Assembly: GCA_965215505.1 (NCBI GenBank)
Contig: OZ244065.1
Coordinates: 4,448,001 to 4,512,000, forward strand
DNA length: 64,000 nt
Direction: 5' to 3'
From: Capsulimonadaceae bacterium
GTDB taxonomy: Bacteria; Armatimonadota; Armatimonadia; Armatimonadales; Capsulimonadaceae
Shown here: positions 58,519 to 64,000 of the stretch, one piece after another
Layout: each line of letters opens with the position of its first letter
Position numbering within the stretch: the stretch's first letter is position 1
Notes under the pieces: generated by a model
Database searches by the model: none
What the model was told of the DNA's origin: nothing
What the model saw: only the letters and a program-made list of their open reading frames with translations
Translations under genes and position numbers: made by a program

Positions 58519-59556
58519 TTATTCGGCACCCAGGGGGGTGTCCGGGTCGGTCGTCGCCGTGCGGGACGCGCGCGGGGTCAGTGGTTTTCCTACCGCCCCG
58601 CCCGTCAGCGTCTCGACGACCAGGCGGTTGAAGGCCTGCGCCTGCTCGTCGTGCGGGAGCAGTCCGCTCTTGTCGAAGACGGTCAGCTCGGCGCGGGCGT
58701 TGGCGGCGAGAAACGCCTCGGCGTCGGAGAGCGGCGTCAGCCGCGCCTCCCGGCCCCAGATGATCCGCACGGCCTTCTGCGTCAGTTTGGGGAACGTCTC
58801 CGCCACGCTCAGGTTCAGCAGGCCGCTGAAGAAGGACGGCGGCGCGTTCTGCGAGCCGTACTGGTGGGTCGCCGTCGAGTAGTGGTCGAGCAGGGCGTCG
58901 TCCACATGGGACGGGTCAAAATACGTCTCGTTCATCAAATAGTGGCGCAGGCCCGGCAGTGACGTGATCGCGTTATGGATCGTTGTCCCCAGCAGGGGTG
59001 CATGGGTGAGCGCGTAGACCGCCGCCGTGCGCGCGTCGGGCGCTTTGGCGAGGTGCCGGAAGCCGGTCGGGCAGACCAGTACCAGGCTGTGAACGGCGTC
59101 GGGGAGGTCGGCGGCCACCTGGACGGCATAGGCGCAGGCGAGCGAGGAGGCGACGATGTCGCACGGCTCCTTGACCACTTCACGCAGGAACTGGCCGAGC
59201 TGCTCGACATACTGGGCGGCGGTGTAACGGACGCGCGGCTTGTCCGACAGCCCAAAGCCCAGCCAGTCGGGGGCGTAGACCAGGCCGTGTTCCGAGAGCG
59301 CGTCGAAGTTCTTGCGCCACTCGTAGCCGGACGCGCCCGCATAGATGCCGTGCAGCAGGACGACAGGGCGGCCGCCCTCGGCGGGTTTCCCCTGGCGCGT
59401 GTAGAAGATGTCGCCATACGGGCCGGGCCAGAAGCGGCCTTCGCCGCCGAGCGGGTTGCCGAGCGCCTTGGCCCGGCCAAAGACGGCGTTGTTGGCGGCG
59501 GCCAGGGCGGTCGCCCCCGCGCCGGCCCAGAGCAGCGTCTTGAGGGTCTTGTTCAT
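58519..59556 (-). CDS. Alpha/beta hydrolase
   Basis: VLLHG, DWLGFGLSD, VASSL, LPHDE. Confidence 0.9.
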   Translation of the reverse strand: MNKTLKTLLWAGAGATALAAANNAVFGRAKALGNPLGGEGRFWPGPYGDIFYTRQGKPAEGGRPVVLLHGIYAGASGYEWRKNFDALSEHGLVYAPDWLGFGLSDKPRVRYTAAQYVEQLGQFLREVVKEPCDIVASSLACAYAVQVAADLPDAVHSLVLVCPTGFRHLAKAPDARTAAVYALTHAPLLGTTIHNAITSLPGLRHYLMNETYFDPSHVDDALLDHYSTATHQYGSQNAPPSFFSGLLNLSVAETFPKLTQKAVRIIWGREARLTPLSDAEAFLAANARAELTVFDKSGLLPHDEQAQAFNRLVVETLTGGAVGKPLTPRASRTATTDPDTPLGAE

Positions 59557-60353
59557 CGGGTGGGGACCTCGCGCGTTGTGATGGGGCTAGTATACCCAAG
59601 AACCCACCCCGGCGCAAGCGCGGCGCTTGCGCCGGGGTGGGTTCCAAAATGCCCCGCCAGAGCGTCCCGGAACGCCCCCGGCCCCGCCCCGTCCCCCGCC
59701 GCCCCCAACGCGGCGAAGCGCCAGTATTCGGTCGCGAAGAAGAGCAGCGGGCGGTCGCCGCCGGTCTGGGCGGCGACGGCGAGGCCCAGACGGAACTCGT
59801 TCCCCTCGGCGGTCGGGCGGCCCGCAGGCATGGCGTAGACGTCCAGCGGCCTGCCGCCGGGGAGCGCGTAAGTGGCGTGGAACAGGGTCGTGAGCGTGGA
59901 GGGTAGGACGGTCTTCCGGTCACGCGCGAGCCGCCGGTAGGGGCCGAGCGTTGGCGGGAAAACGTCATCGAGCGTGGCGGCGGCGACCGGCAGGGTCGTC
60001 AGCGCGGCGGCCGGGGGGACCGCAGGCGCGGCGTGGGTGATGGCGGCAGGCGCGGCGTGGCGGTGACGGCTACGGGCGCCGCTGACGATCAGGACGATCC
60101 CCAGGATCAGCGTGACGAGGGTGATCCCCACAACGGCAAGGCACGCGCCGAAGGACTGCTCTTTGAACCGCTCATCGTCGGCGGCCTTCACCTGCTGGAA
60201 CTCCGGCGATCGCTCCACCTCCGCGCGGGCGGCGGTCAGCTCCTCCGCCGTGGCGTCGTCCACGGTGACCAGGACGGCGAAGCACTCCGGGCAGGTGGTG
60301 GATTTGAGGTTCGGGTACTGCGCGCCGCAGCGCGGGCAGACTTTGGCGGGCAT
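59553..60353 (-). CDS. Zn-ribbon membrane protein, hypothetical
   Basis: CPRC...CPEC, one TM helix, Ala/Pro linker. Confidence 0.7.
   Translation of the reverse strand: MPAKVCPRCGAQYPNLKSTTCPECFAVLVTVDDATAEELTAARAEVERSPEFQQVKAADDERFKEQSFGACLAVVGITLVTLILGIVLIVSGARSRHRHAAPAAITHAAPAVPPAAALTTLPVAAATLDDVFPPTLGPYRRLARDRKTVLPSTLTTLFHATYALPGGRPLDVYAMPAGRPTAEGNEFRLGLAVAAQTGGDRPLLFFATEYWRFAALGAAGDGAGPGAFRDALAGHFGTHPGASAALAPGWVLGYTSPITTREVPTR
59601..59643. repeat. Perfect 20-bp inverted repeat with a 3-nt loop
   Basis: AACCCACCCCGGCGCAAGCG-CGG-CGCTTGCGCCGGGGTGGGTT. Confidence 0.9.
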
Positions 60354-60397: not shown

Positions 60398-60952
60398 TCA
60401 GGGCTTCAGCGTCTCGCGTCCCGGTTTCCAGTCGGAGGGGCAAAGTCCGCCTGATTGAACGGCTTGCAGGACGCGCAACGTCTCCTCCACACTGCGCCCA
60501 ACATTAAGGTTGTTGATCGTTGCGTGTTGAACGATGCCCTCAGGGTCCACGATGAACAAGCCGCGCAGAGTCAGCCCCGCATTTTCAACCAGAACCCCGT
60601 AGTCCGCCGCGACTTGGTGTGTTCGGTCAGCCAGGAGCGGAAAGCGGAGGCCGGAAATGCCGTTCGCCTCGCGTGGGATTGCTACCCATGCTTTGTGACA
60701 ATGCTCACTGTCGGTACTGGCCCCAAGGATATCACAGTCCAGTTCCAGGAACTCGTCAGCCCGGTCCGAGAGCGCCGTGATCTCCGTGGGGCAGATGTGC
60801 GTGAAGTCCGAGGGATACCAGAACAGCACCAGCCACCGGCCCACATAGTCGCTGAGGCTGATGGAGCGGAACGGCGCAAGTGGGGGAAGGGTAGGGTCGT
60901 AGGCTTGCGCCGTGAAAGGAGCGGCGGGCTGACCGACTTGAAGGCTGGTCAT
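60398..60952 (-). CDS. 2-Cys peroxiredoxin (AhpC/Prx1 family)
   Basis: YPSDFTHICPTE, RGLFIVDPEG, GRSVEE, GLCPSDW; alternative GTG start at 61000. Confidence 0.93.
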   Translation of the reverse strand: MTSLQVGQPAAPFTAQAYDPTLPPLAPFRSISLSDYVGRWLVLFWYPSDFTHICPTEITALSDRADEFLELDCDILGASTDSEHCHKAWVAIPREANGISGLRFPLLADRTHQVAADYGVLVENAGLTLRGLFIVDPEGIVQHATINNLNVGRSVEETLRVLQAVQSGGLCPSDWKPGRETLKP

Positions 60953-60999
60953 GGTAATGTGGCTTCCTCTCAGACGTGGTGACGTATCAACAACAGCCA

Positions 61000-61692
61000 C
61001 TACGGGTACTCAGGCGCTTCATAGGAGAACAGCCCCGTCAAATCAAATGAAGACCCCGAAAGGCTCTTCACATGTCCATCCGCCATCAAGACATTGTAAC
61101 GGCGGTAAGGAGACTCCTTTTCCCCATGCCAGGCACCACAGCCATCGTAAAATAGCGGAATCTCGGACGGCCCATATTCCGGGTAGTGTTCCGCCGCGAT
61201 GTCATAAAGGTTGTAGGCTGTTAGACTCGACACCGTGGCGTGTGCTAAAACAATTTTTGTTGTGTAGTAGTAGCTGGTGCCGAAAGTCTCAAAAGAACTG
61301 TTCCTTGCATCCAGCGGATAATAAGAAAACAGATCGAAACTCGAAAATCCCGCGTCTGACGGACATCTCCAAGCATTCGGAGAGTTGACATACGGCTGCA
61401 ATACGACGTTGATTGGCTTCATCTGAGAGACGAGAAGCCAGTCTTCCCCGCCCACGGTCTGCCAGTAGTTTGTTTTTAGATCAAACGGATCGCCACCAAG
61501 GGGGTAAAAGTCGTCATTGTCTTGGGAATACAGGCTGCAAGCCATCCCCAGGTTCCGGAGGTTCGATAGGCAAGCCGTGCGCCGCCCTGCTTCTCTGACG
61601 GACTGAAACACCGGGAAAATCATTGCGGCTAGAATAGAGACGATCCCTATTACTATCAGCAACTCGACAAGAGTGAACCCTTTTCGTTTCAT
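61000..61692 (-). CDS. Prepilin-type N-terminal cleavage/methylation protein (DUF1559 / H-X9-DG type)
   Basis: KRKGFTLVELLIVIGI, CLSNLR, WRCPSD, WH...NVLMADGHVK. Confidence 0.92.
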   Translation of the reverse strand: MKRKGFTLVELLIVIGIVSILAAMIFPVFQSVREAGRRTACLSNLRNLGMACSLYSQDNDDFYPLGGDPFDLKTNYWQTVGGEDWLLVSQMKPINVVLQPYVNSPNAWRCPSDAGFSSFDLFSYYPLDARNSSFETFGTSYYYTTKIVLAHATVSSLTAYNLYDIAAEHYPEYGPSEIPLFYDGCGAWHGEKESPYRRYNVLMADGHVKSLSGSSFDLTGLFSYEAPEYP

Positions 61693-61696
61693 GACC

Positions 61697-62149
61697 TTAA
61701 TCCTGTTGCATCAGTCTTTTCAACGAGTTCTCCGCCGTCTTCAAGCCAAGCCCGCCTGCGGCTCGGCTACGCAGTTTTCCGGCGGCATCAAAGAGAAAAT
61801 AGCTCGGCCAAAGCCCTGATGTTTGGAAGCGGTCCCCAATCGTGTGATCATTGTCTATGGCGCAGGGACCATTAATCCCTAGCTCTTCCGCGACCACTTT
61901 CACCTTCGCTATCTCTGTGTCCTCTGGGGAACGGGGCTGATGTATCGAAACCAAATACAATCCTTGCTCCCGGTATGCCGCCAATAGTTCTTTGAGCCGA
62001 GGCATGTTCATTTTGCAGATCGGGCAAGAGATAGCCCAAAACTGAAACAGTGTCGGGCGCTCAATTAGGTCTTGACTCGCCACACTACGATTCAGCCACT
62101 CCGTTGCTCCTTCCAGTGAAGGAATTGATGTACCAACTTGCAAAGCCAA
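61697..62149 (-). CDS. TlpA-like thiol-disulfide oxidoreductase (redoxin)
   Basis: FWAISCPIC, WPSYFLFD. Confidence 0.88.
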   Translation of the reverse strand: MALQVGTSIPSLEGATEWLNRSVASQDLIERPTLFQFWAISCPICKMNMPRLKELLAAYREQGLYLVSIHQPRSPEDTEIAKVKVVAEELGINGPCAIDNDHTIGDRFQTSGLWPSYFLFDAAGKLRSRAAGGLGLKTAENSLKRLMQQD

Positions 62150-62170
62150 AACCGCTCTCCACTGAAAGAC

Positions 62171-62797
62171 TCATTGCGAACTGATATGCTTGATCGCGCT
62201 CGCGGCCCTGCGGCGAACCACAACGTCAGTATCGTTCAATAAAGGCGTCAGGTATGGGAGCGCTCGTGTATCCTTCAACTGGTTGAAAACTCCCATAGAC
62301 CGTAATTTGTCTGTTCTGTTTGAATGCATTATGAACGTTGCCATGGTCTGAAATACCACTTCTTTTTGAGAGGGTGTATAGCTCTTGACTTCCTGCAACG
62401 CCTCAAAGAAATTTGCCCGCCTGATGGATGAGACAGTAACATCTTGGCTGGGTCCTGGGCTTTTCAACATCTGAATGAGCCAGTTCAAATCTGTGTCAGA
62501 GATAGTGCCGTTCTTCGCGCTTTCTAGAATATGTCCCCTCTTAACGTAGTCATCTTTATACATCACCCCTTCACTCTCGTTGATCTTGGCTTGTTCAGCA
62601 GGAGGCATATCCGAAAAATTGACTGGGTGGCGATGTAGAGATTGCACTGAGACATGGTTACTGCGGAGGGTAAGCAGGCCAAACACGACACAGAGGGCGA
62701 TAAAACCAATTAGTAGAATTGCCGGCCTTGAAATTTTCAATGCAAAAGTCCTCGACGCCCAGGCAGTCATGAAACTGATGTCACACGGGCTTTCCAT
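62171..62797 (-). CDS. Membrane-anchored HEAT-repeat protein
   Basis: N-terminal TM helix; DTRALPYLTPLLNDTDVVVRRRAASAI. Confidence 0.7.
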   Translation of the reverse strand: MESPCDISFMTAWASRTFALKISRPAILLIGFIALCVVFGLLTLRSNHVSVQSLHRHPVNFSDMPPAEQAKINESEGVMYKDDYVKRGHILESAKNGTISDTDLNWLIQMLKSPGPSQDVTVSSIRRANFFEALQEVKSYTPSQKEVVFQTMATFIMHSNRTDKLRSMGVFNQLKDTRALPYLTPLLNDTDVVVRRRAASAIKHISSQ

Positions 62798-62913
62798 TCA
62801 GACTGAAATCTGCGTCTTCAACGAAGCAACCGTCCGCCTGCACGGACTGATGAAGTAGATATGGACTCCGGCCCGAATGGAAAGCCTGTGTGACATCAGC
62901 CACCCATATGGCA

Positions 62914-63381
62914 TTAGCCAGTAGGAGAAACTCCTCCCCCACAGTAATTGTCCCCCACTCTGGCTTGGCATAGTAGGCCAGCTTGAGTGAGATTGCCATC
63001 TGGAGTTGTTCCAAAACATCTGCCGCAGGCATTTATTACACACTGATCGCAGGTTCCACCTTCGATTGGATGTGTACGAGGTCCTCCCGGTTGTGCTGGG
63101 CATCCTGAGCAGTTGAAGCCTAATTGTGCGTCGGAACATCCATCGGCGTCGCAGACCGGATTCGCGAACGCGATTCCCGCCTGCTGGAACTCCTTAGCGA
63201 TCGCCTGAGCCACCCTGTTGTCACCCGCCATGCGCTCCATGCGTTGGCCGACGAGACGTGCAAGATCGTCCACGCTGAACATGGACAGCGCGGCGATGCC
63301 CGCCCCAAAGCCCAGTTTCCGGAGGGCCGCTCGGCGCGTCATCTTCTCGCGCTCCACCCGCCGCGCGGTGTCGGCGTCCAT
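62914..63381 (-). CDS. Cys-rich secreted peptide precursor with a twin-arginine-like leader
   Basis: MTRRAALRKLG, AGIAFA/NP cleavage-like site, 10 Cys in the last ~80 aa. Confidence 0.7.
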   Translation of the reverse strand: MDADTARRVEREKMTRRAALRKLGFGAGIAALSMFSVDDLARLVGQRMERMAGDNRVAQAIAKEFQQAGIAFANPVCDADGCSDAQLGFNCSGCPAQPGGPRTHPIEGGTCDQCVINACGRCFGTTPDGNLTQAGLLCQARVGDNYCGGGVSPTG

Positions 63382-63418
63382 TGCCTTGGTTTTGGCAGGT
63401 TAATCCGCCTTCGTTTGC

Positions 63419-63637
63419 TCATTGTCCGGCATGTGTGTTCTCCTCAGATGATCCCTCTGATGCTTCGATGAGTGCTTCGCCTAACACGGCTTTTGCCTGC
63501 GCCTGTATCTCTTGCAAGGCCAAGACGCGGGCCACGACCAGTCCGACCAGACCTTCAATCCGGTCGCGCTCTTCCATCTTGTCGATGACGGCCTGGGCAA
63601 CGAGGTCAACGAACTCGTCACGGTCTTCGATACGCAT
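63419..63637 (-). CDS. Small helical hypothetical protein (72 aa)
   Basis: GAGGAG SD before ATG 63637; MRIEDRDEFVDLVAQAVIDK... Confidence 0.65.
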   Translation of the reverse strand: MRIEDRDEFVDLVAQAVIDKMEERDRIEGLVGLVVARVLALQEIQAQAKAVLGEALIEASEGSSEENTHAGQ

Positions 63638-63695
63638 GGGCGCTCCTCGCGCGGTGGTTTGGGTGGCGACCCTCGCATTTCGTCCGGCATCTCTT

Positions 63696-63767
63696 GGGAG
63701 GGAGGATGTCAGAGGGAGGGAGGATGTCAGAGGGAGGGAGGATGTCAGAGGGAGGGAGGATGTCAGA
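63696..63767. repeat. Perfect tandem repeat, 4 x 18 bp (GGGAGGGAGGATGTCAGA)
   Basis: Units start at 63696, 63714, 63732 and 63750. Confidence 0.97.
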
Positions 63768-63879
63768 GACATTATACAGCACAATTTCGAGTTTTGATGT
63801 TAAGAAAATGTTAAATCCGCGATTTATTTTTGGACCGAGAGCGTCGGCTATTTTTGGCGTCGAGCCACGGCCCGGCGGC

Positions 63880-63915: not shown

Positions 63916-64000
63916 ATGAAGGCAAGTCTTTTCCTGACGCCGCTGCTGGCGATCATCGGCCTCTGTGTGGCCCCGCGCGCCAACGCGGACCCCTCCGGCC
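63916..64000 (+). CDS. 5' end of a secreted protein, partial
   Basis: MKASLFLTPLLAIIGLCVAPRANADPS, a Sec signal peptide with an ANA/D site. Confidence 0.65.
   Translation, partial: MKASLFLTPLLAIIGLCVAPRANADPSG

Follow-up and report, generated by a model that had tools for sequence, protein, structure and literature searches.

The closest functional analogues of the locus described here, judged from their descriptions, are the haloarchaeal microhalocins, in which a small C-terminal antimicrobial peptide is released from a larger pre-pro-protein with a predicted twin-arginine translocation (Tat) signal. HalC8, one of these peptides, has ten cysteines. Halocin C8 is described as a Tat-signal pre-pro-protein, ProC8, which gives rise to HalI and HalC8, the latter being the active C-terminal peptide of 76 aa, with immunity encoded at the same locus (PMC3387779). 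Here we describe a gene cassette of related layout in a stretch of 64,000 nucleotides, hereafter the window, of contig OZ244065.1 (positions 4,448,001 to 4,512,000) from a Capsulimonadaceae bacterium of the Armatimonadota. The cassette comprises six co-oriented minus-strand open reading frames (ORFs) between 60398 and 63784, and each was located where an earlier reading of the DNA letters (the original prediction) had placed it. They encode, in the direction of reading, a conserved 72-aa protein, a 155-aa precursor with a long twin-arginine leader and a cysteine-rich core, a membrane-tethered protein (X), a thioredoxin-fold protein, a pseudopilin-like protein and a peroxiredoxin. We consider it reasonably probable, from sequence comparison, that the cassette is a horizontally moving module for making a polymorphic, probably Tat-exported, disulfide-rich bacteriocin-like protein of ~8 kDa with cognate immunity.

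The halocin C8 locus differs from the cassette in several respects, as far as descriptions rather than sequences can be compared. It is archaeal, and its immunity function is the N-terminal part of the same polypeptide, whereas the candidate immunity protein here is encoded by a separate downstream gene. The description of halocin C8 includes neither a family with conserved leader and hypervariable core, nor a one-helix gene, nor redox or pseudopilin genes. Polymorphic toxin/immunity modules, on the other hand, have a conserved N-terminal trafficking part, a swappable C-terminal part and a small cognate gene directly downstream; their GC is low, they insert at various sites, and the unit can be duplicated in tandem. 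The cassette shares these features. A variable part stands behind a conserved trafficking part, and the downstream gene co-varies with it (seven pairs and one match in contig size). However, its variable part is small and cysteine-rich and has no known toxin fold (no Pfam match at E<=0.001 in any of 150 family members), and its trafficking part is a twin-arginine leader, not a T5-, T6- or T7-type or double-glycine domain. Judged by these comparisons, the cassette is not a member of any described family. A literature search, with subscription journals outside its coverage, found no description of the precursor family.

The precursor gene (62914..63381, minus strand) encodes a leader, residues 1-73 (63163..63381, minus strand), and a core, residues 74-155 with the stop codon (62914..63162, minus strand). 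Direct reading bore out the features first noted in this protein: the motif T-R-R-A-A-L-R-K-L-G is followed by a 13-residue hydrophobic stretch, a helical spacer, and A-F-A then N-P, and exactly 10 Cys, with CxxC and CxxCxxxxCxxC among their spacings, fall within the final 82 residues. The precursor has no Pfam or NCBIfam match, and PADLOC and PHROGs gave nothing relevant for it, for the 72-aa protein or for X. A sequence-profile search of the PDB likewise returned nothing for the precursor family.

Sixty-eight relatives of the precursor were found in a word-indexed search. A profile search of 1.84 billion sequences, with an alignment of 38 sequences (A1; 37 hand-picked relatives and the window protein) as its profile, revealed 297 family representatives at E<=1e-3, 273 of them at E<=1e-10. 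We examined 196 proteins, namely the 68 word-search relatives and 128 new ones among 150 listed of the 297; family counts cover the 195 that reach the end of the leader model (residues 1-73). The leader consists of a charged N-region, R16 and R17, a 13-residue hydrophobic region (h-region), the motif V-D-D-L-A-R, a long amphipathic helix and the A-F-A end. Both arginines reach at least 90% conservation in A1; of the 195 members, 190 carry RR and 182 carry [ST]RR. At the leader end, Ala occupies position -1 in 191 members and a small residue position -3 in all 195, the commonest ends being AFA (79), ALA (38) and AMA (22). The leader is free of Cys in 191 of the 195. AlphaFold2 (AF2) predicts leader helices at residues 3-22, 28-33 and 37-67, with an overall mean predicted local distance difference test (pLDDT) of 67.9 for the precursor. 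The family is large and unannotated, and so far found only in Armatimonadota.

Two observations concern the start of the precursor. An in-frame TAA at 63400-63402 splits it from a short ATG-started stretch of 10 codons that overlaps the end of the 72-aa ORF, and in P0001, the closest homologue (78% identical), these codons run on into the precursor frame and form an N-terminal extension. This extension is probably dispensable, or mis-called elsewhere, because family conservation begins at the Met of the window protein. Another relative, P0061 (5 member sequences on 3 contigs), carries ~50 N-terminal residues of the YkuV-like thioredoxin-fold protein, the CxxC included, joined in frame to its leader immediately ahead of the RR motif. 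The joint could stem from a deletion, a gene fusion or a chimeric assembly, and it indicates that thioredoxin-fold and precursor genes adjoin elsewhere.

Neighbourhoods were read in five outside loci (L001-L005) from GTDB species genomes, all of them Armatimonadota metagenome-assembled genomes, with neighbours identified by tblastn with the window proteins and by frame reading. Five is a lower bound, because genomes were scanned with a single exact peptide pattern. All six precursor copies in these loci are immediately preceded by a homologue of the 72-aa ORF (the second copy in L002 is without ATG), and X, a low-GC gene for 136-208 aa, directly follows 7/7 precursors, window included. In L002 the triplet of 72-aa ORF, precursor and X occurs twice in tandem. 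The peroxiredoxin gene is present in 5/5 loci (58-64% identity), the thioredoxin-fold gene in 4/5 and the pseudopilin-like gene in 4/5 (43-46% identity); the L004 contig is 2.8 kb long and breaks off in the peroxiredoxin gene. Peroxiredoxin and thioredoxin-fold genes adjoin each other in L001-L003 and are one gene apart in the window. The outer flanking genes differ at every locus. Among metagenome sequences, 27 of the 57 non-self matches to the 72-aa protein share their longest-contig size with a precursor match, and among matches on contigs of at least 3 kb the proportion is 20 of 27; shared size is only a proxy for co-location.

The original prediction had proposed, as its own test, a search for relatives that keep the leader and the neighbouring genes but diverge in their Cys-rich cores, and all three features were found. 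Leader homologues exist, the core is neither conserved nor part of a known family, and linkage to the neighbouring genes is kept. The grouping of the six genes is not due to chance, because the set recurs in five other genomes and forms one compositional island.

This island, at 60398-63850, is 3.4 kb long and of foreign composition. ORFs were called greedily across the whole window. In the five listed cassette genes the GC content at third codon positions (GC3) is 0.54-0.68 and the GC 0.47-0.60, versus a GC3 of at least 0.80 in 39 of the 46 ORFs outside the cassette (about 0.88 being typical) and a GC of 0.62-0.72. The drop starts exactly at the peroxiredoxin stop (60398) and ends between 63785 and ~63916, where a divergent plus-strand gene (63916-64000) that runs off the window end marks the upstream edge. 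The window X gene has the lowest GC of the island, 0.47. Similarly, cassette GC at the other loci lies below that of the flanks, most of all in the gene after the precursor (GC 0.42-0.47). We infer mobility of the module from the low GC3 of the island and from the outer flanks, which differ at every locus; flanking repeats, tRNA-like sites or mobility genes were not seen inside the island.

The core has a median length of 81 aa and a median of 10 Cys, cysteine accounting for 12.6% of its residues. Median pairwise identity is 0.49 for the leader, 0.22 for the core and 0.21 for the shuffled core (1500 random pairs drawn from 171 members filtered for a core of 40-150 aa with at least 4 Cys and a leader of at least 68 aa), and cores are therefore no more alike than shuffled sequence. 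The proposed family of conserved leader and variable core is thereby supported. Composition-corrected BLAST, with a core type set at >=30% identity over >=70% of the length, divided 185 cores into 105 types, 76 of them singletons. Clustering by BLAST without composition correction was discarded, as it lumped 146 of the 185 via Cys-Cys matches. The larger types occur behind both main leader clades, so either leaders and cores have recombined or the types are very old. Only P0001-P0003 among the 68 relatives align over 88-99% of the window precursor, with 78, 59 and 61% identity.

Within a type, the core is nevertheless constrained: between L001 and L003 the ratio of nonsynonymous to synonymous substitution rates (dN/dS) is 0.19 for the core, 0.05 for the leader and 0.15 for X, rough values as dS is near saturation, which indicate purifying selection. 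AF2 gives the core moderate confidence (pLDDT ~78-81 over residues 90-140), and a PDB fold search with the precursor model gave no match at E<=0.001 (best E 4). The hypervariable core is probably a real folded domain. Conserved pre-pro regions joined to hypervariable disulfide-rich mature peptides have been described in conotoxins and in mussel MgCRP-I (PMC4558851, PMC11860864). These animal superfamilies are eukaryotic, exported through the endoplasmic reticulum (ER) and Sec, and usually keep a fixed Cys framework, whereas the 171 filtered members of the present family show 160 different Cys spacings and have a linked partner gene.

The number of core cysteines is even in 174 members, odd in 16 and zero in 5 (n=195; binomial p 1e-34 for even versus odd). 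This parity strongly supports complete disulfide pairing, in preference to metal binding. The core had first been described as disulfide-rich or metal-binding; the first half of that description is favoured over the second. The same counts bear on the alternative that the cassette is a redox or metal unit, which exports a Cys-rich thiol buffer, peroxide sink or metal binder whose core varies as only its Cys content matters. Tat commonly carries cofactor-loaded proteins, the cores are rich in Cys, and peroxiredoxin and thioredoxin-fold genes, both inside the island, recur at five and four of the five loci, all of which would suit such a unit. However, parity indicates disulfides rather than free thiols or metal sites, no metal site is conserved across the many Cys spacings, purifying selection acts on the core within its type, and a partner gene, X, tracks it. 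Furthermore, both redox proteins lack a signal peptide and so belong to another compartment than the exported product. We regard this alternative as quite unlikely.

The X gene of the window (62171..62797, minus strand) encodes a 208-aa, N-in membrane-anchored helical protein with a HEAT-like C-terminus. All seven X proteins begin with a lipobox-like signal (L001, both L002 copies and L003) or a membrane anchor (window, L004 and L005). The anchor of the originally assigned membrane-spanning HEAT protein is thus present, whereas its HEAT label is only suggestive, because the matches of window X fall below the Pfam cut-offs (HEAT 21.7 versus 23.5 bits, HEAT_2 21.8 versus 27.7). The X of L004 reaches HEAT_2 (29.4 versus 27.7), and the other five X proteins have no HEAT match.

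X follows the core type and not the leader, in a small sample. Window X has only three non-self homologues among 5.8 billion clusters (73, 55 and 57% identity), a count that mirrors the three precursors aligned over the whole window precursor, core included (78, 59 and 61%); one of these X homologues and one full-length precursor relative have an equal longest contig of 205123 bp. Between L001 and L003 identity is 0.88 for the leader, 0.64 for the core and 0.74 for X, and between the two L002 paralogues it is 0.87, 0.31 and 0.23, respectively. In these sequences the conserved 72-aa protein pairs with the conserved leader, and the variable X with the variable core. We propose that X may be a cognate binder or immunity protein of the core. 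The earlier suggestion that this protein may be a partner or immunity factor gains support from its tracking of the core.

Export of the precursor by Tat is most likely, as suggested by three weak and partly dependent lines. The first is an S/T-R-R-x-hydrophobic-hydrophobic motif at the boundary of n- and h-region (T-R-R-A-A-L-R-K in the window), followed in the family by a short, Gly-rich h-region of 13-15 residues. The second is TIGR01409 (TAT_signal_seq), which matches 5 of the 38 members of A1 (best E 0.032) and is the sole family to match more than one of them, no other recurrent family match being found at E<=10; PF10518 matches none of the 38. The third is a language-model comparison of residues 1-76, whose nearest neighbours are clusters of the Tat-exported MauA light chain (0.92, 139/256 features) and a Rieske Tat-signal segment (0.89), taken as leads only. 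The MauA leader is long and of Tat type. MauA is described as an exported subunit of small size that contains six disulfide bonds and depends on a thioredoxin-fold CxxC protein for its maturation (bioRxiv 10.64898/2026.03.05.709764). Unlike the precursor, it is a conserved enzyme subunit with a tryptophan tryptophylquinone cofactor. The MauA family PF02975 (Me-amine-dh_L) matches none of the 38 nor of the 150 members, and the leader resemblance is the only link to MauA; the thioredoxin-fold protein of the cassette matches MauD weakly (E 9e-4) and is cytoplasmic.

Several findings weigh against the reading as an exported toxin with cognate immunity. The window precursor itself has no match to TIGR01409 or PF10518 even at E<=10. 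The A-x-A lies ~36 residues past the h-region, far beyond the usual reach of signal peptidase I, and the h-region is followed by two acidic residues, at a point where a basic residue is common in Tat signals. An ordinary Tat layout, with cleavage a few residues past the h-region and ~25-50 aa in total, was not found; at 73 aa the leader is longer than a normal Tat signal, as the original prediction had stated. The co-variation of core and X comprises seven precursor-X pairs and one contig-size coincidence, and the correlation of their identities (r 0.96 over 21 pairs) is driven by the single pair L001/L003, whose near-saturated dS also makes the dN/dS values rough. The X proteins of four of the seven pairs share weak common motifs and so do not belong to unrelated cassettes. 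The redox pair and the pseudopilin-like protein are tied to the peptide by synteny only, and a comparable pair in Bacillus subtilis, AhpA/AhpT, is described as a plain peroxidase system (PMC5300871).

Part of this evidence would equally suit a core with a specific non-toxic role, in which case X would not confer immunity but serve as its receptor, dock or folding helper. The core might then function in recognition at the surface or in the periplasm, in adhesion or in signalling, or as a secreted protease inhibitor, and it might also stay tethered by an uncleaved signal-anchor. The adjacency of X to all seven precursors, its tracking of the core and the purifying selection on both are expected here as well. 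Moreover, the h-region flanks, basic before and acidic after, suit an N-in anchor equally well, and the A-x-A is unusually distant. Nevertheless, a (-3,-1) cleavage-type motif stands where conservation stops in 195/195 members, which argues for release of the core, and an h-region of 13-15 residues is short for a stable anchor. Antagonistic modules would more typically show such an extreme number of core types, a foreign composition and insertion sites that change. We therefore hold a non-toxic role to be unlikely, although less so than the redox or metal unit.

For the bacteriocin-like reading, a working order of events can be proposed. The 72-aa helix would bind the conserved leader in the cytoplasm, as escort or proofreader, and the leader would direct the protein across the cytoplasmic membrane, most likely via Tat. 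Cleavage at A-F-A / N-P would then free the fully disulfide-bonded core, which may act on competitors outside the cell as a bacteriocin-like toxin, while tethered X would bind the cognate core in the periplasm of the producer and so confer immunity. The thioredoxin-fold protein and the peroxiredoxin might protect the producer, or supply oxidising equivalents for folding before export, and the pseudopilin-like protein may aid the product across the outer membrane.

A long conserved leader in front of a hypervariable Cys-rich core also recalls ribosomally synthesised and post-translationally modified peptides (RiPPs). Nif11/NHLP RiPP leaders are conserved over ~60-80 aa and precede hypervariable, often Cys-rich cores in many paralogues, for example the prochlorosins. 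In the cytoplasm they are recognised by LanM, cyclodehydratase or radical-SAM enzymes; their last residues are Gly-Gly, and a peptidase-containing ATP-binding cassette (ABC) exporter removes them. The cassette differs from these systems in having no such enzyme or exporter, no homology to them, a twin-arginine segment and an A-x-A end. Its leader could still be the handle for modifying enzymes encoded elsewhere in the genome, as with Nif11/NHLP precursors and scattered prochlorosin genes, and two loci offer candidates: a radical-SAM gene lies ~1.3 kb upstream of the L002 cassette on the other strand, and HPr-kinase-like and NTP_transf_5 genes lie downstream in L003. However, Pfam and NCBIfam scans found no RiPP-modifying enzyme in the window island, in line with what had been noted at the outset, and none is shared across the window and the five loci. 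The window protein and the 38 members have no NHLP or Nif11 match in NCBIfam or Pfam at E<=10, the leader does not end in a double glycine, and the linked genes include no peptidase-domain ABC exporter. With ~81 aa and even Cys numbers, the cores resemble small folded proteins, and we know of no RiPP leader with a twin-arginine signal-like segment. A RiPP precursor is consequently very improbable.

The neighbours in question are not conserved and could mislead a search for RiPPs. In L002 (2264-6374, upstream, other strand) the radical-SAM protein is accompanied by a BlaR1/BlaI-like pair. In L003 (10827-14389, just downstream of the cassette) a DDE transposase is found with the NTP_transf_5 protein and the HPr-kinase-C-like protein, whose match (E 1e-4) is below cut-off.

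The 72-aa ORF (63419..63637, minus strand) encodes a conserved cytoplasmic protein without signal peptide, predicted to form a single long alpha-helix. AF2 places this helix at residues 3-64 (mean pLDDT 83.7), in agreement with the helical ORF first called. All 37 aligned homologues begin at the same Met. A 121-aa version with a TTG start was rejected as an artefact, because it runs through the tandem repeat upstream and the homologues share the downstream Met. With 11 invariant columns in 38 sequences, the protein is as conserved as the leader. It has no match in Pfam, NCBIfam, PADLOC, PHROGs or the PDB (profile matches only at E>=0.22), and the ESM Atlas gave no usable match. A role as ribbon-helix-helix repressor of the upstream repeats was dropped, because the lone helix is accompanied by no strand and the repeats occur in only three of six sources (window, L001 and L003). 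On the basis of gene linkage, we propose that the 72-aa protein may be a leader partner or chaperone. Complex prediction with the leader (residues 1-76) scored 0.00 in both runs, and as the controls were also unfolded, it is uninformative either way. Between L001 (7532-7717) and L003 (7748-7966) the dS of this ORF is 0.27, versus 0.75-1.85 in neighbouring genes, over only 61 codons; this hints at constraint at the nucleotide level or recent gene conversion.

The thioredoxin-fold gene (61697..62149, minus strand) encodes a YkuV/AhpT-like, cytoplasmic protein of 150 aa. The CxxC redoxin of the original prediction is readily recognised in it by the motif C-P-I-C and by matches to AhpC-TSA (E 2e-11) and Redoxin, both above cut-off, and it aligns with YkuV (2b5x) at E 1.1e-30 over residues 8-148. 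A role as TlpA-like periplasmic disulfide handler is less likely: no hydrophobic N-terminus was found in the window or in the four loci that carry the gene, and the curated cut-offs were missed for ResA (52.5 versus 170 bits), DsbE (25 versus 123) and TlpA (13.4 versus 230). From the missing signal peptide and the YkuV/AhpT match, the protein probably serves the adjacent peroxiredoxin as its reductant. The peroxiredoxin (60398..61000, minus strand) is a typical 2-Cys enzyme of the Prx1/AhpC subfamily, as had been called (AhpC-TSA 121.9 bits, Prx1 E 4e-58); inspection of N-termini showed no hydrophobic N-terminus and no signal peptide.

The active site reads C-P-I-C in the window and C-P-V-C in L001, versus C-H-L-C in YkuV. 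A dipeptide with Pro first is typical of the more oxidising DsbA and glutaredoxin types. In B. subtilis, AhpA (YkuU, encoded by ykuU) appears to use AhpT (YkuV) as reductase (PMC5300871). Similar to that pair, a 2-Cys peroxiredoxin here lies close to a signal-less YkuV-type protein, and the redox pair is best read, from these matches, as an AhpA/AhpT-like cytoplasmic unit. Unlike AhpA/AhpT, it sits in a probably mobile module with a predicted exported Cys-rich protein, and its active site differs.

The pseudopilin-like gene (61000..61692, minus strand) encodes a 230-aa DUF1559 / H-X9-DG protein of prepilin type (class III signal). N_methyl (33.3 versus 21.2) and SBP_bac_10 (DUF1559; 37.2 versus 23.3) are above cut-off, and H-X9-DG (TIGR04294) is borderline (19.3 versus 19), which supports the prepilin-like protein first reported. 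Its prepilin motif is the only one in the whole window.

Tat accepts only folded cargo. A more specific version of the preferred bacteriocin-like reading, which we find quite improbable, would make the cassette a self-contained, mobile factory for disulfide peptides. In such a factory the peroxiredoxin would use peroxide to oxidise the C-P-x-C protein, which would form the core disulfides in the cytoplasm; the 72-aa helix would hold the leader until the core is folded, and the product would then pass through Tat and, with the pseudopilin, across the outer membrane. Tat export of pre-oxidised proteins has been engineered (PMC9995818, PMC6350376). If true, the cassette would parallel in nature the engineered CyDisCo-plus-Tat route and, in the ER, the PRDX4-PDI relay, and its oxidative relay would serve toxin cores of almost unlimited variety, every one of them matched by a separate immunity protein.

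Two features of the DNA may concern expression of the cassette. A tandem repeat of 18 bp in 4.1 perfect copies (63696..63768, minus strand; 100% matches), C/T-rich on the sense strand with CCTCC-type runs, begins 3 nt after a TATAAT box (63771-63776) and lies upstream of the 72-aa ORF, in the probable 5' untranslated region (UTR) or operator of the cassette. The box was read by eye; a consensus promoter scan flagged no minus-strand promoter. Arrays of 19-20 bp with the common core CTGA.A..CTCC occupy the same place in L001 (7389-7470) and L003 (7640-7695), and comparable arrays are absent from L002, L004 and L005. The L001 array abuts a masked run of N. Possible roles for the repeat are those of operator, 5' UTR element or slippage-prone switch. 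A fold masking the ribosome site was rejected, as no stable fold was found (z 0.06).

The second feature is a predicted RNA hairpin with 36-nt arms (62775..62899, minus strand), between the precursor stop and the next gene, with a folding energy of -72.7 kcal/mol (z -7.8; no shuffle out of 200 reached this stability). The annotated start codon of X lies within its 3' arm, and the true start may therefore be the Met at residue 11. In L001, L003, L004 and the first L002 copy the corresponding position holds non-homologous stem-loops; compared with shuffles, only two of these are exceptional, in L003 (z -3.5) and L004 (z -2.6). Rfam returned sub-threshold generic hairpin matches only. The layout is as expected if the small ORF and the precursor were made in excess over the downstream genes.

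Genes with host-like composition lie on both sides of the island. Directly downstream, at 59553-60353 (minus strand), a host-GC gene encodes a 266-aa protein with one membrane segment and an N-terminal zinc-ribbon-like CxxC...CxxC, which has only a weak DZR match. L005 also has a double-zinc-ribbon/TM2 protein ~7 kb from its precursor, probably by coincidence. The product of the divergent gene at 63916-64000 (plus strand), which has host-like GC, starts with a signal-peptide-like or lipoprotein-like sequence.

The secreted biology of Armatimonadota is almost unknown. The precursor would add an unannotated family of several hundred representatives to the systems that join a fixed handle to a variable disulfide-rich payload, such as conotoxins, prochlorosins and polymorphic toxins. 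Its cores would offer over 100 different small disulfide scaffolds as a natural library, and none of these scaffolds is in Pfam. The compact, portable format of 3.4 kb would ease transfer to a test host. The fixed leader, the single-helix partner and the A-x-A junction would give an experimental handle on very long twin-arginine leaders, and the same handles would allow asking whether bacteria naturally export pre-oxidised proteins via Tat.

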